Virus record (IMG/VR): IMGVR_UViG_2698536397_000026
DNA length: 39,458 nt
Reading direction: 5' to 3' (one strand)
Source of the DNA: a virus
Taxonomy: Duplodnaviria; Heunggongvirae; Uroviricota; Caudoviricetes
Each line of letters starts with the position of its first letter. Position 1 is the stretch's first letter. This document shows positions 12,803-39,350 of the stretch, piece by piece. Under the pieces are notes generated by a model. It was given only the letters and a program-made list of their open reading frames with translations, was not told the origin of the DNA and made no database searches. A program made the translations under genes and the position numbers.

Positions 12803-12804
12803 CG

Positions 12805-21254: not shown

Positions 21255-21670
21255 ATTACGCCACTGAAACCGATATGCGGGCGCGTTACCGCGAGGATTT
21301 GCTCAGGCCGTTACTGGCTGTGCCCCGTTCGGATGAGCCGGACACGCGCAAGCTGAACCGGGCGCTGACAGATGCGTCAGCCCTTATCGACAGCTATCTG
21401 TCCGCCCGTTACACGTTGCCGCTGGAGGTTATTCCGGCCGTTCTTGTTCAGCACTGTTGCGCGATTGCCTTTTATTACCTGTGCGATCAGCGAGCCTCCG
21501 ATCAGGTGCGTGACCGTTACCGTGAAGCGCTGGCCTGGCTGAAAGATGTCATGAACGGCAATGTGCCGGTCGGTGTGGATACGAACGGTGCGGCCCCTGA
21601 ATCCGGGGATTTACCACTGGTTCAGTCTGATGCAGCGGTATTCGGGCGCAACCAGAAGGGCTTCATATGA
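21251..21670 (+). CDS. head-tail connector / hypothetical (Mu gp36-like position)
   Basis: 139 aa, ATGA-coupled. Confidence 0.5.
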   Translation: MNYATETDMRARYREDLLRPLLAVPRSDEPDTRKLNRALTDASALIDSYLSARYTLPLEVIPAVLVQHCCAIAFYYLCDQRASDQVRDRYREALAWLKDVMNGNVPVGVDTNGAAPESGDLPLVQSDAAVFGRNQKGFI

Positions 21671-22227: not shown

Positions 22228-22473
22228 ATGAAAACCATCTTTATCAAACCCGCGCCGGGACGCCTGATTCGTGATCCCGACACAATGCGCCCGCTGGCAC
22301 AGGAGGGGGAGGAAAAGCCCTTTACGCCGTTCTGGTGTCGGCGTCTTGATGACGGCGATGTCATTCAGGCTGAAAAAGCCGCTGAAGAGGCTCCGGCTGT
22401 ATCTGCGGATGCAACGACTGCGACAGAAAAACCGGTCGCCCAACCGGCATCCGATAAGGAGAAACCGCAATGA
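22228..22473 (+). CDS. hypothetical protein (81 aa)
   Basis: ORF between gp37-like and sheath genes. Confidence 0.45.
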   Translation: MKTIFIKPAPGRLIRDPDTMRPLAQEGEEKPFTPFWCRRLDDGDVIQAEKAAEEAPAVSADATTATEKPVAQPASDKEKPQ

Positions 22474-23972
22474 TTAATTTTGACGGGATCGGTAATGACC
22501 GCCGTATACCGCTGATTGAGGTTGAGTTTAATAACTCCATGGCTGTCACCGGCACTCCGGCACAGCGTCAGTGTGTGCTGCTGTTTGGTCAGGCGAGAAT
22601 GAAAGAGAATGCCGTGGACGGTGCCGGTGTTCTGGATGTTCCGGTCAGGATCACCCGTGCGTCTCAGGCAACAGAACTCTGGGGGCGCGGCTCCATGATT
22701 GCCCTGATGGTGGCGGAATTTATCGCCATCAATCCTGATGCTGAACTGTATGCCATTGCTCAGGGGAACGGCACCGGACAGGCAACGGCTGCGGCCATGA
22801 ATCTGACCGGAACGGTCACCCGTGACGGGATTGTTTATGCCTGCGTGGGGGGGCGGCGTTATACACTCCCGGCACCAAAAGGTAAGAAAGGCAAAGAACT
22901 GACCGACGAGCTGGCCGCGCTGATCAATGCCGATCCTGACGCGCCCTTCACGGCCTCCTCTGGTGCAGGAAGTGGTGATAATGGCGCAGGTCTGAAAGGG
23001 TCTCTGGGGATCACCGCCCGCTTTACCGGTGAATGCTCCGTTCATGATGTGCGCCTGAACTATTACGACGGGGAAGCAACCCCGGAAGGAATACAGGTCG
23101 CTATAGCCTATCCGAAACAAAAAGCGGCTAACCCGGATATCACCCGAAGCGTGGCGGGTATGGGCGATCGCCAGTACAACTATGTCGTCATGCCCTATAA
23201 GGATGATGCAAACCTGAAAATCATCAGTGATGAGCTTCTGAAACGCTGGGGACCGGCCAAAATGTCTGACGGCGTGCTGTGGCTGGCACATACCGGCACG
23301 TTTGGTGAGGTGCAGGCATTCGGGGCAAAACGCAATGATTTTCTGGCGACCTGCACATCCATTCCCAAAGCCCCTGAACCGGATTACCTCTGGGCAGCGG
23401 CGGTCTGTGCCACCTGTGCACCCTCTCTGGGAGCAGATCCTGCGCGTCCGCTTCAGACGCTGGCGCTTCCGTCACGCATGGCCCCGGCTCCGGCCGATCG
23501 TCTGACGCGTGAAGAGCGTAACAGTCTGCTGTGGGGAGGGATTGCCACGGTCAGTGTGGCTGCCGGTGATGTGGTTCAGATCGAACGTCAGGTGACCATG
23601 TATCGCCAGAACGTGTACGGCGAAAGTGATCCCAGCTATCTGGATGTGGAAACCATCTACACCCTCTCCTGGCTGCGTTATTCCCTGCGTACTTTTATCA
23701 CACAACGTTTTCCGCGCCATAAACTGGCTGATGACGGGACGCCCGTTCGTGCCGGTCAGAATATCGTGACGCCGGAGATCATGAAGCTTCAGTTAATTTC
23801 GCTGGGTGAAGAGTGGGTGGAACTCGGGCTGGTCGAAAATCTGGACACCTTTAAAAAGAATCTGCTTGTGGAGCGTAATGCGTCAGATCGAAACCGTCTT
23901 GACGTGTTATGCACGCCGGATCTGGTTAACCAGTTCCGCTTCCTGGCAGCACAGATCCGTTTCATTTTGTGA
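22470..23972 (+). CDS. contractile tail sheath protein (Mu L-like)
   Basis: 500 aa; RBS AAGGAG; followed by tube gene. Confidence 0.7.
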   Translation: MINFDGIGNDRRIPLIEVEFNNSMAVTGTPAQRQCVLLFGQARMKENAVDGAGVLDVPVRITRASQATELWGRGSMIALMVAEFIAINPDAELYAIAQGNGTGQATAAAMNLTGTVTRDGIVYACVGGRRYTLPAPKGKKGKELTDELAALINADPDAPFTASSGAGSGDNGAGLKGSLGITARFTGECSVHDVRLNYYDGEATPEGIQVAIAYPKQKAANPDITRSVAGMGDRQYNYVVMPYKDDANLKIISDELLKRWGPAKMSDGVLWLAHTGTFGEVQAFGAKRNDFLATCTSIPKAPEPDYLWAAAVCATCAPSLGADPARPLQTLALPSRMAPAPADRLTREERNSLLWGGIATVSVAAGDVVQIERQVTMYRQNVYGESDPSYLDVETIYTLSWLRYSLRTFITQRFPRHKLADDGTPVRAGQNIVTPEIMKLQLISLGEEWVELGLVENLDTFKKNLLVERNASDRNRLDVLCTPDLVNQFRFLAAQIRFIL

Positions 23973-23980
23973 GGTAAGGC

Positions 23981-24346
23981 ATGAGCGGAAAACAGTATCA
24001 GGGTACGGCCACTATCCGTGTGAACGGTCAGGAATACGAGACGCTTGAGGGGGCTACATTTTCTCCGTCTGGTTTTGAACGTGAAGTGGTGAAAGGCGCG
24101 AAAGTCTATGGTTACCGCCAGAAACCACGTGAAGCGACGCTGGACTGCAAATTTCCGGCAGGCGGAGAAGGTTCACCAGCCGCCGATGAAATCAACAACT
24201 GGACTGCGGTCACTATCGAGTTTGTGGCGGATACCGGCGAAGTCCACATGATGACGAAGGCCTGGAGCAGTGAACCGGCCTCGCTTGACGGTGGCGGGGA
24301 GATCTCCGTGAAGTTCGCCAGCGCCTCCAGTACCCGTGTTCAGTGA
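23981..24346 (+). CDS. tail tube protein (Mu M-like)
   Basis: 121 aa directly after sheath; RBS GAGGTAAGG. Confidence 0.65.
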   Translation: MSGKQYQGTATIRVNGQEYETLEGATFSPSGFEREVVKGAKVYGYRQKPREATLDCKFPAGGEGSPAADEINNWTAVTIEFVADTGEVHMMTKAWSSEPASLDGGGEISVKFASASSTRVQ

Positions 24347-24360
24347 TCAGGAAAAATAAA

Positions 24361-24837
24361 ATGACCACACGTAAGAAAAAAACGGCAGTTTCCGAGGCAG
24401 CCGTGATGGAGGCAATCCGGGAAGCACTTGAGGGGGCTGATCCACGCACTGCCGGGCTGACAGAGCAACTGGCAAAGGGATATGTGGATCTGCTTGATGG
24501 TCTGCCGTTTGGTGAGACCCGTGAATATCGTGTCACGTTCCGGGAACTGACAGCGAAAGACAGTATTGACGCAGAAGCAGAAGCCGAGCGCGTGGTGGAG
24601 ACAAACAATGGCCCGATGCTGATAGCGTCTCCGTCGTTACGCGGTGTTGCACTGCTGCGCCGTCAGATTGCCGCAGTGGGAGACATTGAAGGTCCGTTGT
24701 CACCCCGTCAGATTGGACAGTTAAGCGAGCGCGATCTCTCCCGCCTGATGGCAGCGGTCAGCCTGCTGGATACCGCGCTTGCCGGAAAGCTGGCAGCTGA
24801 CCGGGGGCGATCAGGCGCAGTGTCGGGATCAGATTGA
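24361..24837 (+). CDS. tail assembly chaperone-like protein (Mu gp41-like position)
   Basis: ORF between tube and tape measure; start at ATG 24361 (track GTG 24343). Confidence 0.5.
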   Translation: MTTRKKKTAVSEAAVMEAIREALEGADPRTAGLTEQLAKGYVDLLDGLPFGETREYRVTFRELTAKDSIDAEAEAERVVETNNGPMLIASPSLRGVALLRRQIAAVGDIEGPLSPRQIGQLSERDLSRLMAAVSLLDTALAGKLAADRGRSGAVSGSD

Positions 24838-24963
24838 AGAAGCGGCAATTATCCTGGGGATGGTGACAAAAAGCGGTCCGGAATGGGCGCTTAACCTCCC
24901 CCTGTCGCAACTTTACCGGCACTGCCGACAGACAGAAAAAATCATCAGAACGAAGCAGTAAGT

Positions 24964-27039
24964 ATGGCCCGAAATCTCAGAGCATCTCTGATAGTTGATT
25001 TGCTCGGCAATATCTCAGCCAAATCCCGCCAGTGGTCACAGGAGCTGGGGGCATTCTCACGCTCCGGCCAGGCGGGGCTGGGTGGCCTGGGAAATGCTGC
25101 CCGCCGTGCCGGGCAGGAAACAGATGTACTCGGAAGCAGGATGCAGCGCACGCTGGCCGGGGTGCGGGGCAGTATCCGCCATGTCACTTCTGATTTTGAC
25201 CGTCTTCAGGGCAGTATTACCGGCACCATCGGGCGGATCAGCAATCTTTACGGAATGCTGGCCGGTGGTGCTGCTGTATATGGCTTTAACCGGGGATTTA
25301 TTCGCCCGGCAGCGGAGATGGAAACCTATATGATTCGCCTGAACTCCCTTTACAAAGGGGATCGGGCGAAAACTGATGATGTCCGCAGGTGGGCAATACA
25401 GAATGCGAAGGAAACCACCTGGGGGCTGGCTGGCGTCATGCAGGAATATACGTCCAGTCTGGGCTTTGGTATGAGTGACAGGGAGGCCCGAAATTTTGTC
25501 ACCATGCTTCAGGATCAGGGTGCCGTGGGCGGCTGGTCACTGTCCGATGCACAGGGGGCATCCCTGCAACTGAAACAGATGTATGCAAGAGGCAGTATTC
25601 AGGCGGCGGATGCAAATATTCTTGCCACCTACGGCATTAATGCCTACCGCGTGCTGGCTGATCGTCTGGGTGTGGACCAGAAAGTGGTCAGAAAACTTGG
25701 TGAAAAAGGGCTGCTTGGGCCGGACAGTATTCGCCTGTTATTTCAGACGCTGGCGGAACAGGCCAGGGGAGCACAAAAGGACGCAATGAATTCCTGGAGT
25801 GGCCTGACGGCCATGATGGGTGACGTCTGGGATCAGTTTGCCCGGGATGTGATGGACAGTGGGCCATTTGAAAAACTGAAGGGTAATCTCAGGGGATTTC
25901 TTTCATGGGTTGACAGTGCCAAATCTGATGGCAGTTACCATTCCCTGGCGGAAAGCACGGCATCAGCCATGAACCAGGGCTTTGAGTATGCCCGTGATGC
26001 AGTGACAGGGTTTTATCAGGCGATCAGAAAGGTACGCGACACGCTTCAGGCTCTGCGGGATGCGGGCTATGGTGATGCGCTGGATCGCATTGGTCAGGGG
26101 GCACAGACCGCCGCGAAATACCTGCTGTACATGTATCTCGCCACCCGTGCCCTGAAAATGGCGCGGGCTGTCGGAACGGGGATTATACGTCCGGGTGCTG
26201 CATTGCTGGGATACGGATTATCAGCGGCGGCCTTCCTGACTTCACCTTTCCGGCGCTCTCCTCCGGCCGGAACACCACCAGGCACATCTCAGGGACGAGG
26301 GCAACGTTTTATAAACTTTCTTACCGGGGTAAATCCGGCAGCCGTTCAGCCAGTACTTGTAACAAACTGGCCCACAGGAGGACTGTCCGGCACCGGCGCG
26401 ACCGATACTTCCTCAGGCGGACGTCAGGGGCGGGGCCGCAGGAAACGCGGACCGGGGCGCGGAAGACCGGTCACGCCTCCCCTGCCACCGTCCCCAGTGC
26501 CACCGTCTCCCTCTTCTGGTGGGGCAGGGTTCTGGGGGCGCATGATGGGGCGCGCCGGTGGGTTACTTTCGTCTGTCGGTAGCCGCATGGGGCTGGGGCG
26601 TTTCTCCGGCTTTTTCCGCAGTGCCGGTGGACTGGCCGGCCGGCTGGGTGGCGGTGCCCTGTGGGCTGGCGCGATGGCAGCCCCGGTTCTGCTGGATGGC
26701 AGCGCCAGTGCCACAGACAAGGGAGAAGCGGTCGGCTCTCTTGCAGGCAGTATTGCCGGTGGTGCGCTGGGGGCGGCAGCCGGACCTGTGGGGATTGCCA
26801 TTGGTTCTACGGTGGGCAGCTATCTCGGTAACTATCTGGGGGGATGGCTGACTGAAGCCTGGCAGAAATTACGGGGCAGTGATGATGAAAGCAGTGGACA
26901 GGCGGTACAAAAAGCCTCTGCCCGTGTGGAGCTGGTTGCCCCGGAAGGGTGGCAGGCTCGCAGTATTGATATTGATGACACGTCCGGTCACGGACTGGAT
27001 GTGAATGTCTGGAACGGAGGGAATTATGGCCTCTGGTGA
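24964..27039 (+). CDS. tail tape measure protein
   Basis: 691 aa, largest tail ORF, Gly/Ala-rich with Pro/Arg low-complexity segment. Confidence 0.7.
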   Translation: MARNLRASLIVDLLGNISAKSRQWSQELGAFSRSGQAGLGGLGNAARRAGQETDVLGSRMQRTLAGVRGSIRHVTSDFDRLQGSITGTIGRISNLYGMLAGGAAVYGFNRGFIRPAAEMETYMIRLNSLYKGDRAKTDDVRRWAIQNAKETTWGLAGVMQEYTSSLGFGMSDREARNFVTMLQDQGAVGGWSLSDAQGASLQLKQMYARGSIQAADANILATYGINAYRVLADRLGVDQKVVRKLGEKGLLGPDSIRLLFQTLAEQARGAQKDAMNSWSGLTAMMGDVWDQFARDVMDSGPFEKLKGNLRGFLSWVDSAKSDGSYHSLAESTASAMNQGFEYARDAVTGFYQAIRKVRDTLQALRDAGYGDALDRIGQGAQTAAKYLLYMYLATRALKMARAVGTGIIRPGAALLGYGLSAAAFLTSPFRRSPPAGTPPGTSQGRGQRFINFLTGVNPAAVQPVLVTNWPTGGLSGTGATDTSSGGRQGRGRRKRGPGRGRPVTPPLPPSPVPPSPSSGGAGFWGRMMGRAGGLLSSVGSRMGLGRFSGFFRSAGGLAGRLGGGALWAGAMAAPVLLDGSASATDKGEAVGSLAGSIAGGALGAAAGPVGIAIGSTVGSYLGNYLGGWLTEAWQKLRGSDDESSGQAVQKASARVELVAPEGWQARSIDIDDTSGHGLDVNVWNGGNYGLW

Positions 27040-28375
27040 CGGTCGTGGTGCGTTCCGTGGTGTGCCGTTCCTCGTCTGGCGTGAGCAGCGCGAACGTGGC
27101 GGGCGAAACATTGTCCGTCGGGAATATCCGTTACGGGAAACCGGTGGTGCAGACGATCTGGGACCTAAACTGGCTGAATTTACGTTCAGTGTACTTGTGA
27201 TGGGGGATGATGTTCAGACACAGCGAAATCGTCTGCGTGATGCCCTTCGTGCTCCTGGTGCCGGGGAGCTGCTTCACCCGGATTACGGCACGTTAAATGT
27301 GCTGATAAACAGCTTTGAAAGTCGTTATAACGCTGCTGAACAGGGCGTGGTTGAGTTCACCATTAATGTCACGCCGGTAAGTGATGATACCGCACCTGCT
27401 GTCACACAGGACACGGCCGCCATTCTGGAGCAGAAGAGTACCACCGCGCTCGGGAAGGTTTTTGAAACCCTGGAAGCGGGCTGGACGGTGATTTCTGACG
27501 GAATGCACGATGTCCAGGCAATGACCGAAACCATCAGCGATAAGGTGTCCGCCCTGGAAAATGCCGTTTCCGGCATGGGGATTGTACAGGATATCAGTGC
27601 CTTTACTGCCACGTTCACGGCGCTGAAAGGGAATGCCACGGCATTACTGACAGCACCTTCCCGCATGGCCTCATCTTTTGCGGGGCTTTTCAGTGCCCTG
27701 ATCACCCTGCCATCGCTGCCGTCACTGTCTTCAGGAGGCCTGAATACCCGGCCCGGTGGCAGTATCGGCCGGACGACATCCGCCGTCTCTCAGGGAATGC
27801 CGCAACTGTACAGGACATTATCTTCCCTGCGTTACGTGCTGGATGAGCAGGATAATCCGCAGACTCTCATCGGTCTGACACCGGCAGCACAAAAGAATAT
27901 TCGTCTGATACGGGCGGTAATGCAGAGTGCTGCCGTGGTGGCCCAGGCACAGACCGTGGGAAAACTGCTGGATCAGGTTCTCAGTCAGGAAACCCTGCCG
28001 GACAGTGACGCAGCCCACCGTACCTGGCCTGTCTGGCTGGAAAGTTCAGTTGATCTTCAGCGCATTAACCGTGACTTAAGCGAAGCGCTCGAACGGCAGG
28101 TGATGACACTGTCCGGGCAGGGGTATACCGCCACGGCGCTGACGCTTCGTGATGCCAGACTGGCACTGACAGAGGATCTGAATACACGGGGAGTTCAGCT
28201 ACCCGGTGCAACAGTAGTGACTGTACGTACCACCGAGCCTGCACTGGTGACCCTGTACCGTGCCACCGGGAACAGTACCGGCTGGCAACGTTTTGTGCGC
28301 CGTAACGGTATTGTTGATCCGCTGTTCATTCCCGGAGGCCATTCAGTGGAGGTGATTAGTGAGCAGCAGGGTTGA
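27026..28375 (+). CDS. DNA circularization protein (Mu N-like)
   Basis: about 449 aa after tape measure; RBS GGAGGG before ATG 27026. Confidence 0.55.
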   Translation: MASGDGRGAFRGVPFLVWREQRERGGRNIVRREYPLRETGGADDLGPKLAEFTFSVLVMGDDVQTQRNRLRDALRAPGAGELLHPDYGTLNVLINSFESRYNAAEQGVVEFTINVTPVSDDTAPAVTQDTAAILEQKSTTALGKVFETLEAGWTVISDGMHDVQAMTETISDKVSALENAVSGMGIVQDISAFTATFTALKGNATALLTAPSRMASSFAGLFSALITLPSLPSLSSGGLNTRPGGSIGRTTSAVSQGMPQLYRTLSSLRYVLDEQDNPQTLIGLTPAAQKNIRLIRAVMQSAAVVAQAQTVGKLLDQVLSQETLPDSDAAHRTWPVWLESSVDLQRINRDLSEALERQVMTLSGQGYTATALTLRDARLALTEDLNTRGVQLPGATVVTVRTTEPALVTLYRATGNSTGWQRFVRRNGIVDPLFIPGGHSVEVISEQQG

Positions 28376-29483
28376 ACTGTATCTGGGCGGTGAGATTTTT
28401 TCCGGCTGGCTGACGGTGAGTGTTCGTCGCTCTCTTGAACATCTGGCGGGCTCCTTTGAACTGGGGGTAATGATGCCCGGTGTACGCCTTCCGTCATCCG
28501 TCCGTGCCGGTCAGTCTCTGGAATTGCGCATTGACGGTCAGCCTGTGATCACTGGCTGGCTGGATCAGGTCCGGCAGCGCATCAGCGCCACGCGTTTTCA
28601 GATCACGCTCAGCGGACGGGATAAAACCGGTGACCTGGTGGACTGTTCAGCCATTCATCCGGGCAGCCAGTGGAGGAACCGCACGCTGGAGCACATTGCT
28701 TCAGATTTGTGTGCTCCGTTCGGGGTCACGGTGCGCTGGCAGGTAAATGATGCAACGGCAGCCCGGCCCTTTTCCACCTTCACACTGGAAAACTCAGAAA
28801 CCGTGGCAGATGCGCTGACAAGGGCCGCGAGACACAGAGGCGTCCTGGTAACCAGTAATGCCGCCGGTGAACTGGTTTTCACTCAGGCCGGCAGTCAGCG
28901 TGGCGACACGCTGACGCTGGGCGAAAATCTGCTGGATTTGGATCACAACGTGGATCACCGTCTGCGCTACAGTGAATACCGTGTACGGGGGCACGGGCGT
29001 GGTGGTGGTCATGCCGGGGATGCACTGACAGCCGGAACGCTGGCCGCACCCGTTGGTACGGTGACAGACAGTGCCATCCACCGTTACAGACCGAAAATTG
29101 TGCTGGCGGATCATGCTGTTGATGCAGACGGTGCACGCCAGAGGGCTGTCCGGGAAATGCGCCGGGCGGTTGCCCGCTCTGTGCGCCTGACAGCCACCGT
29201 GCGGCACTGGTTTAGGGAGAACGGCCAGTTGTGGGATATCAACCTGCTGACGGCTGTCACGGCTCCCCGCACCGGAGTGGAAGAGCGTGATCTTCTTGTC
29301 TGTCAGGTGGAGTTTTCGCTGGATGCAAATCACGGCGAAACCACCCGTCTGATTCTGGCACCCCGTGACGGCTTTATTGTTCCGGCAGAGCCGGGAAACA
29401 GCGGAAGCGGAAATGCGGGTGACGTGGACGCCTTCGTGCGGGCACAGATGAAAAAACAGGGGATTAAATTCAATGATGAATGA
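28359..29483 (+). CDS. baseplate hub / tail protein (Mu P-like), GTG start
   Basis: 374 aa; RBS GGAGG; synteny. Confidence 0.55.
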   Translation: MSSRVELYLGGEIFSGWLTVSVRRSLEHLAGSFELGVMMPGVRLPSSVRAGQSLELRIDGQPVITGWLDQVRQRISATRFQITLSGRDKTGDLVDCSAIHPGSQWRNRTLEHIASDLCAPFGVTVRWQVNDATAARPFSTFTLENSETVADALTRAARHRGVLVTSNAAGELVFTQAGSQRGDTLTLGENLLDLDHNVDHRLRYSEYRVRGHGRGGGHAGDALTAGTLAAPVGTVTDSAIHRYRPKIVLADHAVDADGARQRAVREMRRAVARSVRLTATVRHWFRENGQLWDINLLTAVTAPRTGVEERDLLVCQVEFSLDANHGETTRLILAPRDGFIVPAEPGNSGSGNAGDVDAFVRAQMKKQGIKFNDE

Positions 29484-30087
29484 CGAAGTCATCAGCCGCC
29501 TTCTGGCCCCCGTAATGCGGGGTGTTCGTCTGCTGTTCGGGCGTGGTGTACTGACCGGCACAACGGACACGCTGAAAATCCAGAATGTGCAAATAACCGG
29601 TATGGATGGTGAAACCTTTGATGACGTTGAACGCCCCCAGCAGTACGGGCAAATCAGCGTCCCCCTGCCTGGTGCGGAAGTTTTTCTGGCCTGTGCTGGC
29701 GGACAACGGGATCAGGCCGTGGTGCTTGTGGTGGAAGACCGCCGCAGTCGCCCGACCGGACTTACCGCCGGAGATACCGGCGTGTATCACCATGAGGGGC
29801 ACCGTATACGTCTGACAAAGAACGGCCGGATCATTGTGACCTGTAAGACGCTGGAGATTTACGCCGATGAAGGTGTTCAGGTGGATACACCGGAGGCTCA
29901 CTTTACCGGTAATGTCACAGTGGATAAGAACCTGCATGTCAAAGGCAATGTGTCCATTGACGGCACCGGAAGATCACAGGGGACGTTCACGATGTCCGAA
30001 GCGGTTATTGCCGGGATCACCTATTCAGGTCATGTGCATCACGATAACGGTGAAGGCAGCAAAACGGGAGGACCAGAGAATGGCTGA
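29473..30087 (+). CDS. baseplate spike / assembly protein (Mu gp45-like)
   Basis: 204 aa; synteny. Confidence 0.5.
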   Translation: MMNDEVISRLLAPVMRGVRLLFGRGVLTGTTDTLKIQNVQITGMDGETFDDVERPQQYGQISVPLPGAEVFLACAGGQRDQAVVLVVEDRRSRPTGLTAGDTGVYHHEGHRIRLTKNGRIIVTCKTLEIYADEGVQVDTPEAHFTGNVTVDKNLHVKGNVSIDGTGRSQGTFTMSEAVIAGITYSGHVHHDNGEGSKTGGPENG

Positions 30088-30517
30088 TATTGCTGTCGTC
30101 TGGGATCAGGGTTGCGGTTCCCTGCAACTGAACGGCGCAGATCTTCTGACGGATAACAGCCTGCTGACTGCGGTCATTATTTCACTGTTTACGGACAGGC
30201 GGGCGCTGGATTCCGATGAAATCCCTGACGGCACCCGTGACCGTCGGGGATGGTGGGGAGACAGTTTCCGGGAGCGCCCCGTTGGCTCCCGTCTCTGGCT
30301 GTTAAGCCGTGAAAAGACGCTGTCCTCCGTGGTCAGCCGTGCACAGGCCTATGCTGATGAAGCGCTGGCGTGGCTGCATAAAAGCGGTGCTGCCACATCC
30401 GTGGTATGTCATGCCATGCGTGTGGGGCATGCTCGCCTTTCGCTTTCCGTGAAAATTACCCTGCCGGACGGAAGCAGACATCCGATGATTTTTTATGCTG
30501 ATATGAAGGGGGAATGA
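30080..30517 (+). CDS. baseplate wedge protein (GPW/gp25-like, Mu gp46 position)
   Basis: 146 aa from ATG 30080 (track ORF starts 29867 in overlap with upstream gene). Confidence 0.5.
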   Translation: MADIAVVWDQGCGSLQLNGADLLTDNSLLTAVIISLFTDRRALDSDEIPDGTRDRRGWWGDSFRERPVGSRLWLLSREKTLSSVVSRAQAYADEALAWLHKSGAATSVVCHAMRVGHARLSLSVKITLPDGSRHPMIFYADMKGE

Positions 30518-31599
30518 TGCCTTATCAGCCCTTACCACTGGCGCAACTGATCACACAGACACAACAGGATATCAGCCAGCGCCTGCCCGGTTCGCAGCCG
30601 GGCGTGAATGAAACCACCCTGAATGCCATTGCGTATGCACTCGCGGGTCTGTCAGCACAGGAGCATGAACATCTGGCCTGGATCTCCCGGCAGATAATTC
30701 CGACAGAAGCTGATGAAGCCGAACTCCTGAAACACTGCGCATTCTGGGGTGTCATCCGTAAACCGGCTTCCCGCGCTGACGGACCGGTACAACTGATGCT
30801 GACCACGGATGCAGGGATCACGGAAGGCGTACTCCTTCAGCGAAGCGATGGTGTTGTGTACCGCATCACCGGCTCTGCGACCGGAAAAGCCGGAACACTG
30901 AATGTTAATGTGGAGGCGGAAAGTGCGGGGCGCGCCGGAAATACCCCGACCGGAACCCGCCTGTCCTTTATCACGCCACAGGCGGGCATCAACCAGACAG
31001 CCACGGTCACCGGCACGGGACTCACCGGTGGTGCGGATGTGGAAACGGTGCCGGAGTTGCTGTCCAGGCTGGTATTCCGGGTACAGAACCCGCCATCAGG
31101 GGGAACACAGTATGATTTTGAACGCTGGGCACGGGAAGTACCGGGCGTGACGCGGGCATGGTGTAAGCCTGAATGGCCTGAGGCGGGTAGTGTTGGTGTG
31201 ACTTTTGTTCAGGATAATAACCCTGACATTTTCCCCGGAGAAGGTGATGTGAAGCGGGTGGCGGATTATATCCGCAGTCATGATGATCCGGCGACGGGCC
31301 AGCCCGTTGGTCAGCCACTTGGGCCGACAATCAGCGTGTTTAAGCTGACCAATAAGCCGGTGGCGTTTGAGATCAGGATTGTACCCAAAACGCCGGAAAA
31401 TCAGGCTGCCGTAAAACAGGCATTAACGGACCTGCTTTATAACGAATCGCGGCCGGGTGGACTTGTATTGCCTTCATCATTCTGGCGGGCTGTTGCAGGG
31501 GTGAAAGGACTGGAGGATTTTGAAGTTCGCAGCCCGCTGAAGTCCGTGATGGCCGGAGATACAGAGTTGCTGACCGTGGGGGAAATCACATGGCTGTAA
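30514..31599 (+). CDS. baseplate J-like protein (Mu gp47-like)
   Basis: 361 aa; RBS GAAGGGGG; synteny. Confidence 0.6.
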   Translation: MMPYQPLPLAQLITQTQQDISQRLPGSQPGVNETTLNAIAYALAGLSAQEHEHLAWISRQIIPTEADEAELLKHCAFWGVIRKPASRADGPVQLMLTTDAGITEGVLLQRSDGVVYRITGSATGKAGTLNVNVEAESAGRAGNTPTGTRLSFITPQAGINQTATVTGTGLTGGADVETVPELLSRLVFRVQNPPSGGTQYDFERWAREVPGVTRAWCKPEWPEAGSVGVTFVQDNNPDIFPGEGDVKRVADYIRSHDDPATGQPVGQPLGPTISVFKLTNKPVAFEIRIVPKTPENQAAVKQALTDLLYNESRPGGLVLPSSFWRAVAGVKGLEDFEVRSPLKSVMAGDTELLTVGEITWL

Positions 31600-32150
31600 C
31601 CCTGACCCCGCATCAGCGTGCCCTGTTGCAGTTGCTGCCTGACGGGCTGGCATGGGATAAGCGGCCGTCATCCGTTCTTGCGGCTTTGTGCCTGGGCCTC
31701 AGTCATTCCACGGAGCGTGTTTCCTGGACCGGTAACCAGATGCTGGCAGAACGTTTTCCTGATTCATCCCGTCTGCTGCTGGAAGACTGGGAGCGTTATC
31801 TGGGGTTACCGGAATGTGATATGACCGGCGCAACCATTCAGGAGCGTCAGCGTTATGCCGGGAATAAATACCGGATGAAACCCTCTCTTAACCGTGAATT
31901 TTATATCCGGTTTGCGGCAGAGTTTGGTTATGAAATAGATATTCAGCCATCACCGGATTCACAGTGGGTCAGTATTGTCACGATTAACAGTGAAACCGGC
32001 TACCGGAATATGAATGTGCTGGATGATATTCTCACCCCGCTGCGTATTTATGAGGGTGGTGCGCTGGAATGTATTCTGAACCGTTATAAGCCTGCATGGC
32101 AGACGTTTATTTACGTGTATGCAAACAGCCATGAAGAGGAGACTATTTAA
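31590..32150 (+). CDS. tail protein (Mu gp48-like)
   Basis: 186 aa between J-like and tail fibre. Confidence 0.5.
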   Translation: MAVTLTPHQRALLQLLPDGLAWDKRPSSVLAALCLGLSHSTERVSWTGNQMLAERFPDSSRLLLEDWERYLGLPECDMTGATIQERQRYAGNKYRMKPSLNREFYIRFAAEFGYEIDIQPSPDSQWVSIVTINSETGYRNMNVLDDILTPLRIYEGGALECILNRYKPAWQTFIYVYANSHEEETI

Positions 32151-33061
32151 TGTTTCATGTTGATAATAATTCCGGCGTGGCGAATATGCCTGCGCTGGCA
32201 CCGGCGCAGAGTAATACCACCACCTGGTTTACCGAAGGTGACGGACAAAAAGGTATCAGCTGGATTGGTCAGGACTGGCTGAATATTCTCCAGGCCGAAC
32301 TGCTGAATATTCTGGCTGAAGCCAGTATTCAGCCGGATAAGGCGCAGTTAAACCAGCTTACGCTGTCCATTAAAGCCATTATCGCTGCGAATGCCTTTTC
32401 CCGGAAAAACAACCTGAAAGAAATTGCTGATGCCGGTGCGGAAGCCCAGCGTCTTGCCCGTGGTTATCTTGGTCTTGGGGCGCTTGCCACAAAAAACAGT
32501 CTTGGTCCCGGTGACGTTAATGCTCTGGCGAAGGATCAGAACCTTGCCGACCTGGAGAATGCGGGAACCGCCCGTAATAATCTGGATGTTTACAGCAAAA
32601 GCGAAGGTGATAACCGTTACCTGCGCAGGGAGCAGAACGGCGCAGACATTCCGGATAAAGGCGCTTTTATCGATAACGTCGGTTTACGGGAAACGGTAAA
32701 TAAGGCTGCTGATGCCCTGCCATCGGGTGGAACCGCCGTGGCAGCAAACAGACTCGCCACCCCAAGAAATATTAATGGCGTTCCTTTTGACGGAACGCAG
32801 GATATCAACATCACGTCAGGAATGACGCAGTCAACCGCAGATGGCCGGTATGTACAGAATGTTCAGCTTGGAGCACAGAGCTATCATTCACCCGGAGGCA
32901 ATGAAATATCATGGAATTACAGCGCACCTTCCGGTTGTATGCTTTCCGGTATTAACGTGCAGGAAACCGGCTCCCGGTCTGCGGACAATATCGGTGGGGT
33001 CTATTATCGCCCGGTTCAGATTTATATTAATAATGCCTGGAGAACGGTAAGTTCAGTGTAA
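32150..33061 (+). CDS. tail fibre protein (constant N-terminal part plus invertible C-terminal cassette Sv)
   Basis: 303 aa; C-terminal region homologous to an oppositely oriented cassette at 33739..34093; gix-like site inside the gene at about 32679. Confidence 0.7.
   Translation: MFHVDNNSGVANMPALAPAQSNTTTWFTEGDGQKGISWIGQDWLNILQAELLNILAEASIQPDKAQLNQLTLSIKAIIAANAFSRKNNLKEIADAGAEAQRLARGYLGLGALATKNSLGPGDVNALAKDQNLADLENAGTARNNLDVYSKSEGDNRYLRREQNGADIPDKGAFIDNVGLRETVNKAADALPSGGTAVAANRLATPRNINGVPFDGTQDINITSGMTQSTADGRYVQNVQLGAQSYHSPGGNEISWNYSAPSGCMLSGINVQETGSRSADNIGGVYYRPVQIYINNAWRTVSSV
32670..32697. other. left gix-like inversion site (within tail fibre gene)
   Basis: TCGGTTTACGGGA shared in inverted orientation with the right site; one half-site degenerate. 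Confidence 0.45.
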
Positions 33062-33095
33062 ACCACAGAAAAGGGTGCTGAATGCACCCTCTGAA

Positions 33096-33617
33096 TTATT
33101 CCGGTTTTTCCGGCCAGGGAATCGCCTGGTAATGCCCCTCACTGGCAATATCATTAAAGTGCATTTCTTTAAGCTGTCGGATATACGCCATCCAGCGCGT
33201 CAGCTGTAATTTATTTTCATCGCTAATCATGTCCAGTTTTAATTCTGTTTTCCAGTCATCCACGGTTTCGTTGGCTTCCTGGAGCAGCGATGAGCGACGC
33301 TTTTCAGCAACCGTCTTCCAGTTTACCGGCACCTTTGATATCAGGCCATCAGAAAACTGCCAGTTACCGTCAATATTCACACCTTCCGGCAGTTCGTCCA
33401 CTTCAACAACAGTAAAACCTGCCGGATATAAAGCAGAGACATCTTCAGCAACAGAGCAGATAATACCCGTTACAGGCGAAATACAGAGTTTGTATTTCTT
33501 TGTGAAAAGCGGGATAGATTCATAAAAATCCCTTCCGTCCTCACTCTGGAAATACTGAACATCCTCACCATAGGGTTTGTGTTTCGGGTAATATCGTTTG
33601 ACATTAATCAGTTGCAT
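33096..33617 (-). CDS. tail fibre assembly protein (Tfa / U'-like)
   Basis: N-terminal region MQLINVKRYYPKHKPYGEDVQYFQSEDGRDFYE typical of Tfa chaperones; start probably at an internal Met (track ORF extends to 33668). Confidence 0.7.
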   Translation of the reverse strand: MQLINVKRYYPKHKPYGEDVQYFQSEDGRDFYESIPLFTKKYKLCISPVTGIICSVAEDVSALYPAGFTVVEVDELPEGVNIDGNWQFSDGLISKVPVNWKTVAEKRRSSLLQEANETVDDWKTELKLDMISDENKLQLTRWMAYIRQLKEMHFNDIASEGHYQAIPWPEKPE

Positions 33618-33738
33618 AAACATCACCATGTAAATCAATGATAAAAACAGGAATAATACTATCGCCATATACAGGCAATGCTTGTCTGAAATAACGCATA
33701 TTTCAGATGCTGGCTGCTGTGTGCTATGCCCCCGTTAA

Positions 33739-34093
33739 TTAAATACTTGCAGCGGATACCCAATGCCCATTAATACAATATTGTATCTGTCTGTAATAAA
33801 CACGGTCATCACCACCACGCATTTCCCAGTCTCCGTTAGTCTTAAAACCGGTAATCACATTTCCTGATGACAGGGAGTAATTATATTCCAGTCCGCCGCT
33901 TAATGCCTGCGCTCCCAGTCTTACCCCTGTAACATAACGCTGATTGGCCGTTGATTCCGGCATTCCTGACGTAATGTTTATATCCTGCGTGCCGTCAAAG
34001 GCGACACCATTGATTCTGCGGGCATTTGCCAGCCTGCTTGCTGCAACAGCCGTACCGTTTGATGGCAGGGCATTCGCGGCCCTGTTTACAGTA
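33739..34093 (-). CDS. alternative tail fibre C-terminal cassette (S'v), no own start codon
   Basis: Minus-strand frame open from right gix site; encodes ...INGVAFDGTQDINITSGMPESTANQRYV... homologous to the end of the plus-strand fibre gene. Confidence 0.6.
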
Positions 34094-34117
34094 TCCCGTA
34101 AACCGAGGTTTCAGGGA
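34094..34117. other. right gix-like inversion site
   Basis: TCCCGTAAACCGAGGTTTCAGGGA, near-palindromic and close to the Mu gix / Salmonella hix consensus as I recall it; 55 bp upstream of gin. Confidence 0.6.
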
Positions 34118-34172
34118 TGCCGTATATCTGCTTTAAAAGGCCTTTCCATCTCTTTTTAAGGAAGGTAAATAC

Positions 34173-34733
34173 ATGCTGATTGGCTATATACGCGTATCAA
34201 CAAATGACCAGAACACAGGTTTACAAAGAAATGCGCTGGAATGTGCAGGATGTGAGCAGATTTTTGAAGATAAAATGAGCGGAAAAACAACGCAGCGGCC
34301 GGGACTGAAGCGGGCACTGAAGAAACTAAAACCCGGTGACACGCTGATGGTCTGGAAACTGGACAGGCTGGGGCGCAGTATGCGCCACCTTGTTGCGCTG
34401 ACAGATGAATTACAGCAACAGGGGATAAATTTTCGTAGTCTTACTGACAACATTGATACGTCAACCCCCATGGGGCGCTTCTTTTTTCACATAATGGGTG
34501 CGCTGGCAGAAATGGAGCGTGAATTAATTGTCGAACGGACACGGGCTGGTCTTGCAGCTGCCCGTGAAAGGGGACGAACCGGCGGCAGACCCCGTCGTCT
34601 CACGCAGGAACAATACGAGCAGGTCGGGCGTTTACTGGCCGGGGGTGTCAGTCGAAGACAGGTGGCACTTATTTTTGATATCGGCCTTTCAACCCTTTAT
34701 CGTTATTATCCTGCGAGCGTTTCGGAAAAATAA
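34173..34733 (+). CDS. gin: serine recombinase, DNA invertase (Gin/Hin/Cin family)
   Basis: 186 aa; MLIGYIRVSTNDQ... catalytic Ser motif and C-terminal HTH; RBS AAGGAAGG. Confidence 0.9.
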   Translation: MLIGYIRVSTNDQNTGLQRNALECAGCEQIFEDKMSGKTTQRPGLKRALKKLKPGDTLMVWKLDRLGRSMRHLVALTDELQQQGINFRSLTDNIDTSTPMGRFFFHIMGALAEMERELIVERTRAGLAAARERGRTGGRPRRLTQEQYEQVGRLLAGGVSRRQVALIFDIGLSTLYRYYPASVSEK

Positions 34734-34823
34734 GACGCTCCCTTTGTTGGGCCTTTACTGAATTAACGCAAAATGGCGTTTATCGGTCTGTGGATATGAT
34801 AATTCTGTTTATTCAGGAACAGG

Positions 34824-36881
34824 ATGAATATTATGACGTCCAAATGGGTTCAACTATCATCAATGCCCGGAAACTTTACCGTTAAAGTTTCCGGTGGTAC
34901 AGCGGCATTTCTTGAGGCTCCCTTTCCTCCTGCTGAAACGAAAGGAGGAATGACATTTGCTGACTGTCTCATCAGTTTTAATACACAGGATTGCCTGTGG
35001 GTAAGGCCAGTATCCGGTGATCCGAACGTGGAAATTACCGGAGCGGGTATTGGTGCTGTCATTCCGTTAAGTGCTGATGTTGCCGGTACTACTGAACCGT
35101 CAGACTGGGATAATGCAGAAACACATACCCGTCCGGCAGGAAATGAAACTGCTTCCAGCTCCCCTTCCTGGTATTACGTGATTGTTATAGCCGGCCAGTC
35201 CAATGCTTCATCTTATGGTGAAGGGTTGCCCCTTCCGGATTCTTATGATCGTCCTGATCCACGTATTATGCAGCTGGCACGCAGGAATACACAAACCCCC
35301 GGAGGTATTCCCTGCAAATACAATGAAATCATTCCAGCAGATCACTGCCTTCATGATGTTCAGAATATGAGTCTGCTGAACCATCCAAAAGCAGACCTGA
35401 AAAAAGGGCAGTATGGTTGTGTGGGGCAGGGACTTCATATTGCGAAAAAAGTATTACCGGTGATTCCTGCTGATGCCGGGATTTTACTGGTTCCCTGTGC
35501 CCGTGGCGGCTCTGCTTTTACAACCGGCGCAGTTGGCTCATTCGATCCGGCAAGTGGTGCAGCCGAGGCGTCACTACGCTGGGGAGTGGATACCCCACTG
35601 TATCAGGATCTTGTCAGTCGAACTAAAGCGGCACTTGAGGCGAATCCAAAGAATGTGCTGTTATCTGTCGTATGGATTCAGGGGGAAGGAGACCTTAAAG
35701 CGACCCCGGCCCAGCATGGTGCCCAGTTTACTGCGATGGTGAAAAAATTCCGTGCGGATCTTGGTGCTTTCTCCGGTCAGTGTATTGGTGGTTCATCAGA
35801 CAGTGTGCCGTGGTTATGTGGTGACACAACCTATGACTGGAAAGAGAAGAACCCGGCGGCATATGAAACCATTTATAGCGGATATAAAAACCGGGCTTCC
35901 GAGAACATTCACTTTGTTCCACTGATGCACGATGAGTTCGGTAATAAAACCGCGACCAACCTGCCGGAGCACGACCCGGATATCGCTTCTGCCGGGTATT
36001 ATGGTGCGGAATCACGGGGAGATGGCAACTGGACAACAGCATCCAGGGCAACCCATTTTAGCTCCTGGGCGCGCCGTTTTCTGGTCTCAGATCGTTTTGC
36101 ATCAGCAATTCTTAAATATGCAGGTCTGACCTCTGCATTTATTGCCGGTGTGGCCCCTGATGGTGAAGCCCTGCCTCAGCCCGCGCCGGGTGGGAAACCG
36201 GAAGCGCCGACAGGTAGTCAGCCAGGAGGCAGTGAGTCCCCCCATCCGACATCCCCGTCACTCCGTACGCTGCTTTCACTTAAAGCATCAGCAGGAGAAG
36301 CCCCGGCTCAGGGCTGGAAAATTACAGATGGTACAATCCAGCTGACGGACGAAGGTAAAGCGTTGACCGTATCCAAACAAAGCGGAAAAACCTGGACGCT
36401 TACCCATGGAACTGATGCAGCCGGTGAACTTCTGAAGCATGGTGGTCAGTTGACCTGTAAATTCCGTCTGTCAGGTGAAGTAAAAGAAGGCCAGTTTGCT
36501 CTGGGTATTTACCTCCACACCGATACGGTCCCGGAAGGTGTAACCATGAGTGGTACAGGCACACCGTTCCTGATGGCGTATTATCTCCAGACAACAGGCG
36601 GCCAGTTAAATCTGATGCACCATAAAACAGGGGGGAATACGAAACTGGGATCATTTGGAGCCTACAATAACCAGTGGCATACACTTGTCCTGAAGTTTAC
36701 GGCGGGAAGTGCCCAGGTAACGCCTGTGCTGGATGGCACTCCGGGCCAGGCATTCCAGATGGTGAAAGATGCACTTTCCCCTGCCAAAGATACGCTGACA
36801 CTGACAGATGTCACCAAAGGGGCAACTTATGGCGTGTCTTTTGAGAGCGTTGTCCTTGAGGTTAATACCCCTGCGGCATAA
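34824..36881 (+). CDS. SASA/SGNH-family carbohydrate esterase (sialate O-acetylesterase-like) with Pro-rich linker and C-terminal beta-sandwich/lectin-like domain; cargo gene
   Basis: 685 aa; block I IAGQSNASSYGEG, block WIQGEGD, no N-terminal signal peptide; Pro-rich linker PQPAPGGKPEAPTGSQPGGSESPHPTSPS; not part of the Mu gene set. Confidence 0.65.
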   Translation: MNIMTSKWVQLSSMPGNFTVKVSGGTAAFLEAPFPPAETKGGMTFADCLISFNTQDCLWVRPVSGDPNVEITGAGIGAVIPLSADVAGTTEPSDWDNAETHTRPAGNETASSSPSWYYVIVIAGQSNASSYGEGLPLPDSYDRPDPRIMQLARRNTQTPGGIPCKYNEIIPADHCLHDVQNMSLLNHPKADLKKGQYGCVGQGLHIAKKVLPVIPADAGILLVPCARGGSAFTTGAVGSFDPASGAAEASLRWGVDTPLYQDLVSRTKAALEANPKNVLLSVVWIQGEGDLKATPAQHGAQFTAMVKKFRADLGAFSGQCIGGSSDSVPWLCGDTTYDWKEKNPAAYETIYSGYKNRASENIHFVPLMHDEFGNKTATNLPEHDPDIASAGYYGAESRGDGNWTTASRATHFSSWARRFLVSDRFASAILKYAGLTSAFIAGVAPDGEALPQPAPGGKPEAPTGSQPGGSESPHPTSPSLRTLLSLKASAGEAPAQGWKITDGTIQLTDEGKALTVSKQSGKTWTLTHGTDAAGELLKHGGQLTCKFRLSGEVKEGQFALGIYLHTDTVPEGVTMSGTGTPFLMAYYLQTTGGQLNLMHHKTGGNTKLGSFGAYNNQWHTLVLKFTAGSAQVTPVLDGTPGQAFQMVKDALSPAKDTLTLTDVTKGATYGVSFESVVLEVNTPAA

Positions 36882-36938
36882 TCGTGACGGCCGGGAATTT
36901 ATCCGGCTGTAACATCAGTTAATAAGAGTGAGGCTTAT

Positions 36939-37118
36939 ATGACATATATAAACGTCTGCCTGCTGTATTTCTGCACGGTGGTTTGTTGTCTGTTGCTTGT
37001 CAGCGGTGGTTATAAAATTATTCGCAATTATTTTCGAAATAAAATTGATGCAGCTGCCGAGGAAAAGATAAAAAGCGGTGCTGTAATGCCGCAGCCGAAA
37101 GACTCCGGTCAGATTTAA
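36939..37118 (+). CDS. small membrane peptide (59 aa)
   Basis: RBS GAGTGAGG; hydrophobic N-terminus VCLLYFCTVVCCLLLVSGG; below 60-aa track cut-off. Confidence 0.4.
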   Translation: MTYINVCLLYFCTVVCCLLLVSGGYKIIRNYFRNKIDAAAEEKIKSGAVMPQPKDSGQI

Positions 37119-37153
37119 TTTTTTGTGAACCAGAAAAGGAAAGGAGAATATTC

Positions 37154-37399
37154 ATGCCAGAGATTAAAGGCACGGTTACTGAAGAGCTTGTCAAACAGGC
37201 ACTTTATTCTGAAGAAGTGAACCGCGTGCTGAAGGCGCAGGTTCGCAAGGATTTTGAGGCACAAATCGACGCATATGTTGATGAAGTGCTGGCCCGAATG
37301 GTTGGTCGTTCTCCGGCTGAAAACAGCACGGAAAATGAGCCTCAACCCGTAGAGCAACCAGAGCCGGTTCAACCCGGAACTGACGGTACTATGATGTAA
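37154..37399 (+). CDS. hypothetical acidic protein (81 aa)
   Basis: RBS AAGGAAAGGAG before ATG; followed by hairpin. Confidence 0.45.
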   Translation: MPEIKGTVTEELVKQALYSEEVNRVLKAQVRKDFEAQIDAYVDEVLARMVGRSPAENSTENEPQPVEQPEPVQPGTDGTMM

Positions 37400-37408
37400 C
37401 AATACCGA

Positions 37409-37428
37409 CCGGCAGGTTTCCCTGCCGG
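37409..37428. terminator. hairpin (CCGGCAGG-TTTC-CCTGCCGG) between convergent small genes
   Basis: Perfect 8-bp stem; short T-containing tail on + strand. Confidence 0.4.
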
Positions 37429-37437
37429 GTGAATTTG

Positions 37438-37608
37438 TTAATGCACGTTTTGTGTATTTTCCCTCCGGGGAGAACAGGCCGGACATATCAGCATCCTGAA
37501 ACAGGAAGCATTTTTTGGTTTGTATGTCTTGCCATTTTGAGATCGAGAACGGCGATAGATGAGCTGTAAGGGAGTCTTACAGGCAGGGCAAACAGGCTCT
37601 TTATCCAT
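37438..37608 (-). CDS. candidate small zinc-ribbon protein (56 aa)
   Basis: Minus-strand ORF with perfect AAGGAG 9 nt upstream of ATG; two CPAC motifs about 30 aa apart; basic. Confidence 0.35.
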   Translation of the reverse strand: MDKEPVCPACKTPLQLIYRRSRSQNGKTYKPKNASCFRMLICPACSPRRENTQNVH

Positions 37609-37716
37609 GATAAAGATCTCCTTTTTATGCATCTCTGCTTTACAGGAGACCGGGGAATATCATAGGATACGCCACGAGCTCGAAGTAAAGCATTGATGCA
37701 AGTTTTTACAGATTGA

Positions 37717-37752
37717 CCCAGCATAGTTCCAGCTATGCTGGGTTTCCCTTTT
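37717..37752 (+). terminator. strong rho-independent terminator upstream of com-mom control region
   Basis: Perfect 10-bp stem CCCAGCATAG / CTATGCTGGG, 6-nt loop, followed by TTTCCCTTTT. Confidence 0.6.
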
Positions 37753-37794
37753 ATGTAGTATCCTGTTGATTTGAAACATACTACATATACGCGC

Positions 37795-37844
37795 GATCCT
37801 ACCTTCACTGTATAAAAAGTCAATAAAATGATCATTTTATGATC
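37795..37844. promoter_or_regulatory. cluster of three GATC (Dam) sites upstream of com; candidate methylation-sensitive mom control region
   Basis: GATC at 37795, 37830, 37841 within 50 bp in an AT-rich region; Mu mom is known to be controlled by Dam methylation of three upstream GATC sites. Confidence 0.4.
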
Positions 37845-38014
37845 GTTTTCACCACCTAACTCTTCGTTTCTTTAAGTAAATAATCACCGCCCTGAATCAT
37901 TGTTGATGACTTTTAAATCTATTTGTTGTATCAATTAAACAAATCGAATCGATCGTTTTTGTCGATCGATTGCATGAGAAAGGCATCAACAACAAAGCAG
38001 GAGGTTATGCGGCC

Positions 38015-38215
38015 ATGTATCGAAACATACGGTGCCGACACTGCAATAAGCTACTGGCACGGGCCAGTTTCAGTTATCTGGAAGTAAAATGTCCGCGCTG
38101 TAAAACCCTCAATCAAATCACATCTCCGAGCGCCACAGAGCACCCCACATACACAAGGAAATCCTGTCGTGGGGAACAGAAAGCAAGTCACATCCCGTAT
38201 CATCAGCACGCCTGA
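38015..38215 (+). CDS. com: Com-like zinc-finger translational activator of mom
   Basis: [30 protein letters not shown] closely parallels Mu Com zinc finger as I recall it; RBS AGGAGG; overlaps downstream mom-like ORF. Confidence 0.8.
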
Positions 38216-38906
38216 ACTTATTCGCTATAACGACAATATCGTTGGTTATGGCTCCCGTGAGTTGCGGGTTGAGACAATAAGTTGCTGGCTGGCCAGACTG
38301 GTTATCGTCAATAAACATTACAGCCACCGTTTCGTAAATAATTCCTACCTTCATCTGGGTATATTTTCAGAACGGGAACTTGTTGGCGTAATGCAATGGG
38401 GTTACGCCCTTAACCCAAACAGTGGTGCACGCGTCGTAACGGGTACGCAGAACCGAGAATATATGGAGCTTAACCGGCTATGGATGCATGACTGTATGCC
38501 GAGAAACTCCGAATCAAGGGCAATCAGTTACGCGCTCAAGCTAATCAGGCAGCTTTATCCGCAGGTACAGTGGGTTCAGTCGTTTGCAGATGAGCGTTGT
38601 GGCTGTCTTGGTGTCGTGTATCAGGCAAGCAATTTTGATTATGTAGGCAGCCATGAATCAACATTCTATGAACTTGATGGCGAGTGGTATCACGAGATTT
38701 GCAGGAGTGCCATTAAACGAGGCGGACAACGAGGTGAACATCTGAGGGCTAATATCGACAGAGCCAGTGTGCATAAGTTCCGACAGTTTCGTTACATCCG
38801 GTTTCTGAACAAGAGGGCCAGAAAACGCCTCAACACAAAGCTATTCAAAGTCCAGCCTTACCCAAAACCACAAACAGTTAAAACTGGTTTGAAAGAGAGT
38901 GAATGA
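38169..38906 (+). CDS. mom: Mom-like DNA modification protein; start codon uncertain
   Basis: 245-aa ORF overlapping com 3' end, last gene before right end, exactly as Mu mom; track start is GTG. Confidence 0.65.
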
Positions 38907-38951
38907 GCGCTTAAAAACTCATTCTAAAACTCAAAAGAAAAGCGCCGATTT

Positions 38952-39036
38952 AGTATCAAATAAGTTGCGTATCGGCGTTTTTCAGCGGTATCAAATGAAA
39001 TGCAAATCGGTATCAAAAAAATCGCCGCGCTATACA
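38952..39036. repeat. attR: right end with three inverted transposase-binding repeats (rTTTGATACY at 38952, 38988, 39009), terminus ...GCGCTATACA
   Basis: GGTATCAAA / AGTATCAAA are reverse complements of left-end repeats; terminal CGCCGCGCTATACA resembles the Mu right end in my recollection. Confidence 0.5.
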
Positions 39037-39350
39037 ACCCGAGCTGGAAGCATCATCCAGAGCCCTCATGAAACGACTGTAACAGCTGTTGAAAAACCGG
39101 AATGCACTCTTCATTGCAAACATTTCAGGGATGAAGTGAAGATGAATTGAGACGTAGTATCCACATCAAGCCGGCGTTATCCGGTGAGGCGCAATGTTGC
39201 GGGGGCTTTATCCCTGGTGGCATTGGTTGCTGGAAAGAGAAAACCCCCGCACGTTGAGAGGTTTAACCTGACAACAGAACGGGGGCTAATCTTGAACCAG
39301 AACAATTCAAGAATAGCCGCAAAATGTTGTCATTACAACAAGGCGGCTAT

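Follow-up and report, generated by a model that had tools for sequence, protein, structure and literature searches.

The transposase binding sites of phage Mu lie in two sets of three, one at each end of the element. Measured on Mu's own sequence, L1, L2 and L3 occupy positions 6-27, 111-132 and 151-172 from the left terminus, and R1, R2 and an inverted R3 occupy positions 6-27, 28-49 and 56-77 from the right terminus. The Iβ and Iγ subdomains form the end-binding module of the transposase MuA (PMC3362531). In addition, a passage of a 2008 paper (PMC2628397), citing Morgan et al. 2002, credits Mu, FluMu, Pnm1 and Sp18 with six putative transposase binding sites each. For TnsB, the transposase of Tn7 and of the CRISPR-associated transposons (CAST), closely related elements were shown to have diverged, orthogonal ends (PMC9308760). 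Here we describe the ends of an Sp18-type Mu-like transposable prophage in the IMG/VR virus record IMGVR_UViG_2698536397_000026. The whole stretch of DNA that was analysed (39,458 nucleotides) is called the window in the following.

We found that the motif TTTGATACY, that is TTTGATAC(C/T), had eight matches in the window, where 0.42 were expected, and none of 100 dinucleotide-preserving shuffles gave eight matches. Six of them are at the ends of the prophage, starting at 241, 336 and 388 on the plus strand and at 38952, 38987 and 39009 on the minus strand, and all six point inward. An earlier note, made from the sequence alone, had listed three copies of this family at each end, and the motif search of the window found the same. 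Five of the six starts in that list were correct, and the right-end copy placed at 38988 in fact starts at 38987. Meanwhile, the range of 38952-39036 given for the right-end copies runs 2 bases beyond the right terminus (39034). We propose that the six cores are very probably the inner halves of end-binding (att) sites of about 22 bp for the MuA-family transposase of this prophage. This proposal is built on the existence of the sites, their fixed geometry and conservation, their co-variation with one segment of the transposase, the MuA-like N-terminal fold of this protein and the 4-bp target-site duplication. The physical binding, the assignment of subdomains to half-sites and the division into core and accessory roles are argued from the analogy with Mu.

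The cores are located 18-26, 113-121 and 165-173 bp from the left terminus, and 18-26, 40-48 and 75-83 bp from the right terminus. A weak outer half (approximately NGGCRAWTYA) was present 5′ of each core, which gives a site of about the size of a Mu site. For instance, the outer half of L1, AGGTGAATCA, is kept as AGGTRAWTYA across the specificity classes described below. The start-to-start spacing was 95 and 52 bp at the left end, with the first site apart, and 22 and 35 bp at the right end, where the sites are clustered, and R3 is found 13 bp beyond the abutting R1 and R2. The earlier note had called this spacing Mu-like, and the comparison with Mu supports the description. Both elements have three sites per end in inverted sets, and in both L1 stands apart from L2 and L3 (the start-to-start distances in Mu are 105 and 40 bp). 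Furthermore, R1 and R2 abut at 22 bp in both elements, and the inner edge of the first site is about 26-27 bp from the terminus. Since the distance of the first site, the separated L1 and the 22-bp R1-R2 spacing agree, the layout is homologous to that of Mu.

However, R3 is inverted in Mu and direct here, and the sequences of the sites are unrelated, with RYRCGAAAR in Mu and TTTGATACY here in the same register. The 22-bp Mu consensus YGTTTCAYTNNAARYRCGAAAR was absent from both ends of the prophage, where the best match had 6-7 mismatches in the 18 specified positions. For comparison, the L1, L3, R1, R2 and R3 sites of Mu itself have 0-4 mismatches to this consensus, and the weak L2 site has 8. 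Conversely, TTTGATACY was absent from the Mu ends. The statement of the earlier note that the core is unrelated to the Mu site was therefore right. This difference is expected because the transposase is only 22% identical to MuA.

The termini of the prophage were fixed by 11 independent insertions of near-identical or related elements and by an unoccupied site. In strain 120899, this unoccupied site reads ...ATTGGCAACCCGAGC, and CAAC is present once. A 4-bp duplication was found in all 11 insertions of this phage family, and its sequence differed from insertion to insertion; the 5-bp target duplication of the Mu type was not found. The left terminus (224-227) reads 5′-TGTA, or TATA in strains M18 and CI5. 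The right terminus (39031-39034) reads ...CTATA-3′ in all copies of class A, to which the window belongs, and ...CTTTA-3′ in class C. Thus, the right transferred strand ends in TA and not in the canonical CA of Mu, and the element lacks the 5′-TG...CA-3′ terminal dinucleotides of Mu. In addition, two copies of an Ldr type-I toxin open reading frame (ORF), 98% identical to each other, flank the prophage at 1-108 and 39351-39458 of the window. As these copies are the first and the last 108 bases, the prophage is inside an Ldr repeat array, and the insertion point is the spacer of this long-direct-repeat (LDR) array and not within a gene. Among 5,426 complete Escherichia coli genomes, 233 had the left end, at a total of 284 chromosomal places, and 244 had the right end.

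The earlier note had made its claim depend on the repeats being conserved at the ends of related elements, and we found that the cores are conserved islands in diverged relatives. Seven left ends were aligned, and their three cores proved invariant, with strongly diverged surroundings of L2 and L3 in M7638 and STEC299. Fourteen IMG/VR loci with a transposase at least 89% identical had three exact TTTGATACY copies with the 95/52 spacing. Meanwhile, relatives with a transposase 72-76% identical had no TTTGATAC and had three copies of TTCAAGATA at the equivalent place. Two complete prophages of this kind (class C), located via the genomes of E. coli VL40 and FDAARGOS_943, contained exactly six TTCAAGATA in 43 kb and none of them was internal. 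Their positions are 18, 89 and 141 at the left end and 18, 40 and 75 at the right end, the latter being identical to those of the window. Furthermore, the right ends of class C and the window can be aligned without gaps at 55% identity, yet the core bases match at only 3 of 9 positions. Thus, all six cores were exchanged in ends that are otherwise still homologous.

We also considered whether TTTGATAC and TTCAAGATA might be one GATA-centred motif shifted by 2 bp, and rejected this because the right ends align without gaps and have the same core coordinates. A scan of IMG/VR for TTATCTTGAA-N10-14-TTATCTTGAA, a pattern modelled on the right ends of class C, matched 20 unrelated contigs and missed the class C contigs.

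The switch of the cores is accompanied by a change in one part of the transposase. Between class A and class C, the transposases share 80-100% identity along their length, but only 27-40% at residues ~120-195. The chimeric class B (L048 and L050) is nearly identical to the TTCAAGATA class outside this segment and similar to the window inside it, and its ends carry TTTGATACT. Overall, the core co-varied with residues 120-195 in 19 aligned elements with complete transposases, which represent five core classes. In further loci, the type of the segment predicted the core, namely TTCAAGATA in Salmonella and TTGATAC in an E. coli element (57% identity) and in Leminorella. For seven GTDB-representative loci, from the Enterobacterales genera Symbiopectobacterium, Sodalis, Raoultella, Pluralibacter, Klebsiella and Limnobaculum, the order was reversed, and the TTGATAC core was found first and the segment proved to be of the A type on later alignment. 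The Symbiopectobacterium locus L107 has a left end destroyed by insertion sequence (IS) elements and gave no information.

More distant members have the same geometry and other cores, for example TTCTGGACT in Pantoea (L139) and TTYTGCA in Erwinia (L135) and Phytobacter (L171). Three direct repeats with similar spacing were also found upstream of the early genes in Rodentibacter (L149 and L153) and in Haemophilus and Gallibacterium (L146 and L169). As the cores among these distant members of the transposase family also include TGATTAAG and CTTTTACG, the end specificity has diversified many times.

Within the segment, a helix-like motif differs from class to class (LSEITLKRW, ISRDPLYQW, VSVPTLQRW, VGxRSLQEW or VGKSSLQQW), and its versions are candidate reading-helix motifs. 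Elements from Enterobacter and Mixta have the TTTGATACT core with a quite different segment, which is 32-34% identical and shares only T-L-x-R-W. This indicates that a few residues matter rather than overall similarity. In addition, the best structural matches of an AlphaFold2 (AF2) model of the transposase were MuA Iα, Iβ and Iγ, and TnsB chains were among the fold matches. Judged from the sequence comparison, residues ~120-195 are thus a candidate specificity determinant within an Iβ-like end-binding subdomain. All computational tests were favourable to the distinct end-recognition specificity that the earlier note had attributed to this transposase, and we infer the binding itself from these comparisons.

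Direct repeats upstream of early genes could also be operators of the phage repressor, of Ner or of another regulator, but we regard this as very unlikely here. The motif is found again, inverted, 38.8 kb further on, where it has the same distance from the right terminus, and the core tracks the transposase segment. Moreover, repressors differ greatly among TTTGATAC-class elements (28-42% identity, or no possible alignment), and the repressor of the window most resembles (52%) that of an element from class C, where the core is another one. The core thus does not follow immunity.

We also see little chance for a reading in which the repeats serve packaging (pac) or are bound by an architectural protein of the host, with the transposase recognising something else near the termini. 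HU and IHF act at the Mu ends, the pac site of Mu is at the left end, and the highly conserved L1-L2 spacer of the prophage contains a palindrome, all of which could be taken in favour of such a role. However, TTTGATAC is switched to TTCAAGATA between prophages of one host species, E. coli, which would not be expected of a site for a host factor, and a pac site should be present at just one of the ends. A comparison of both ends found no repeat family common to them other than TTTGATACY.

A site-specific integrase likewise has arm-type sites that are short direct repeats near both prophage ends (attL and attR), as would be expected of a lambdoid or P2-type element. We exclude this reading almost entirely, since no integrase gene is present, proteins of the MuA and MuB types are encoded, and the element occupies hundreds of unrelated chromosomal places, each insertion with its own 4-bp duplication and without a shared att core. 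It is hardly conceivable that the repeats are a chance or neutral feature without function, because, although the two internal copies show that the 9-mer can arise without a role at the ends, the number of copies far exceeds the expectation, the geometry is fixed at both ends, the cores are conserved as islands and all six were replaced together in class C.

Taking the repeats as end-binding sites of the transposase, we propose the following mechanism by analogy with Mu. Transposase monomers would dock on the six sites via a two-part Iβ/Iγ-like DNA-binding module, in which the Iβ-like subdomain (~120-195) would read the 9-bp core. The weaker outer half, NGGCRAWTYA, is probably recognised by the Iγ-like subdomain, which is the more conserved of the two. 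With the asymmetric layout, both ends could be brought together in a transpososome, and the conserved L1-L2 spacer is probably bent in this process. The transpososome would then nick after the terminal ...YA-3′, and the ends would be joined to target DNA with a 4-bp stagger, with the MuB-type ATPase assisting.

The first ~108 bp of the left end were almost invariant even in relatives whose L2-L3 region had diverged. The spacer between L1 and L2 contains a perfect palindrome, AGGTGAAATCACCT, at 270-283, and CAGGTGA occurs at 230 (+), 279 (-) and 304 (+). This spacer may be bound by an accessory or bending protein, like the HU-bound L1-L2 spacer of Mu, or it may contain extra transposase half-sites. 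In L048 and L050 (~1845-1890), and also in L055-L060, the spacer just inside L1, CCGGGAGGAAAGTGGATTAAACGGGATTTGATGGGAT, is homologous to positions 31-67 of the Mu left end. However, the site cores adjoining it are unrelated to Mu, and the spacer of the window is different again. Thus, the ends are mosaics. A hidden Mu-like half-site, suggested by GCTGAAAAA after R2 and by GGTGAAAAA after L1 of L048, was rejected because it is missing at the other sites.

The two matches outside the ends are internal TTTGATACC copies at 3635-3643 (-) and 20261-20269 (+). The first is in the intergenic region between A and B, ~18 nt upstream of the start codon of B, and is missing in STEC299 and M18. The second is inside the major head gene, and all three complete class A prophages that were examined have it. 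We rejected both as extra functional sites, as both regions are conserved regardless of any end function and two extra matches are barely above chance. Since STEC299 and M18 lack the copy at 3635 and the class C prophages have copies at their ends only, the internal copies are probably fortuitous.

The positions of the prophage, its sites and its main genes are given in Table 1. From left to right, the prophage carries a repressor gene, ner, A and B, then the structural genes, the invertible segment with gin, and com/mom. The transposase has Iα/Iβ/Iγ-like N-terminal subdomains, a DDE core and a Mu C-terminal domain, and a MuB-type ATPase is encoded next to it; this is the architecture of MuA and its MuB partner, and the protein is a member of the MuA family.

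Table 1. Positions in the window of the prophage, its insertion site, its six end sites and selected genes
Feature	Position	Strand	Remarks
Sp18-type Mu-like transposable prophage	224..39034	+	38,811 bp, 5′-TGTAACCAGG...CGCGCTATA-3′; from independent insertions and the empty site
Left 4-bp target-site duplication CAAC	220..223	.	single CAAC in the empty site
Right 4-bp target-site duplication CAAC	39035..39038	.	same basis as the left copy
L1 site (putative)	228..249	+	core TTTGATACC at 241-249; outer half AGGTGAATCA
L1-L2 spacer	250..335	+	250-331 (terminus-proximal ~80 bp) nearly invariant in relatives
L2 site (putative)	323..344	+	core TTTGATACC at 336-344; core invariant in M7638 and STEC299 despite diverged flanks
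L3 site (putative)	375..396	+	core TTTGATACT at 388-396; preceded by a conserved CGGC
R3 site (putative)	38952..38973	-	core TTTGATACT at 38952-38960; oriented as R1 and R2
R2 site (putative)	38987..39008	-	core at 38987-38995; exactly 22 bp from R1
R1 site (putative)	39009..39030	-	core TTTGATACC at 39009-39017
Repressor	495-1208	-	
Ner-type protein	1247-1495		
MuA-family transposase	1497..3587	+	696 aa, 22% identical to MuA
Transposase codons 120-195, Iβ-like segment	1854..2081	+	co-varies with the repeat core; includes ...SCAKAIRFIV... and ...LSEITLKRW...
MuB-type AAA+ target-DNA activator	3659..4591	+	Pfam Phage-MuB_C, AAA_22
gin, Gin-type serine recombinase	34173-34733		
mom	38169-38906		

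Some other features of the prophage were noticed. The invertible region (32675-34110), which adjoins gin, resembles a G segment and has 179-nt inverted repeats (74% complementary) at its borders. Between gin and mom there is a 685-aa ORF (34824-36881) with a sialate O-acetylesterase-like SASA domain and DUF6645; this cargo gene is absent from Mu and is kept in the class A prophages examined. In addition, a perfect hexanucleotide array, AGCCGA repeated 11.8 times (21119-21189), is located within the ORF 20841-21254 and encodes two alternating residues. This ORF varies from 354 to 414 bp among relatives and may be a contingency or length-variable locus.

The closest described element is Sp18 of E. 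coli O157:H7 Sakai. The ends of Sp18 are identical to those of the window over the site region, and its termini and six cores (18/113/165 and 18/40/75) are at the same positions. However, the 4-bp duplication is TAAA in Sp18 and CAAC here, and Sp18 is inserted in sorM, whereas the copy in the window is in the Ldr toxin repeat array. The DNA is also 96-98% identical to the 'Mu-like phage' insertions in the Stx phage records LC727881 and LC727895, whose authors liken their Mu-like phages to Sp18. The 4-bp duplication is already annotated in the GenBank records of these Stx-phage insertions. With respect to the FluMu/Pnm1 group, the transposase family of the window extends to Haemophilus and Neisseria.

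The TnsB systems are similar in that they have multiple end repeats, asymmetric between the ends, which are recognised by a pair of DNA-binding domains whose structures resemble MuA Iβ and Iγ. However, they differ in family, in mechanism (cut-and-paste with TnsA), in the number of sites and in the 5-bp duplication, and their repeats have no sequence relationship to those described here.

The end repeats are thus correctly identified, but they are already known in substance and are what is expected of a distant relative of MuA. They are not new because the ends are identical to those of Sp18, which PMC2628397 credits with six putative transposase sites. The sites of Morgan et al. 2002, as that paper relates them, may be the present six repeats. 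In the literature, we found no description of exchangeable classes of end specificity linked to a single module of the transposase, nor of the 4-bp duplication, the TA-3′ right terminus and the direct R3 as departures from Mu. The swappable classes, the consistent 4-bp duplication and the TA-3′ right terminus are therefore possibly new.

A broader reading, for which we see the chances as evenly balanced, is that, in a single lineage of closely related phages, exchange of the ~75-residue Iβ-like module, accompanied by joint replacement of the six cores, has produced mutually orthogonal end-recognition classes that use a variant Mu reaction with a 4-bp stagger and a TA-3′ end. There would be at least two such classes and probably five or more, comprising TTTGATAC, TTCAAGATA, TTCTGGACT, TTYTGCA and a second protein solution for TTTGATAC. 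If this is true and previously undescribed, it would provide a natural recognition code for the engineering of orthogonal Mu-type transposition systems.

No new kind of system is added by these results, and the comparative part will be more useful to specialists in transposition. Nevertheless, the repeats show where the cis-acting ends are in a transposable prophage that occurs commonly in pathogenic E. coli, often with several copies per genome and sometimes inside Stx phages, and the exact termini and sites aid the annotation of such insertions and the understanding of their mobilisation. The consistent 4-bp duplication and the TA-3′ terminus imply that the geometry of the transpososome can vary within the Mu family. 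Furthermore, the switch of the core with one small segment of the transposase indicates where the DNA-reading residues are and suggests that some Mu-type systems are naturally orthogonal, and such orthogonality, if true, would stop co-resident Mu-like prophages from mobilising each other.
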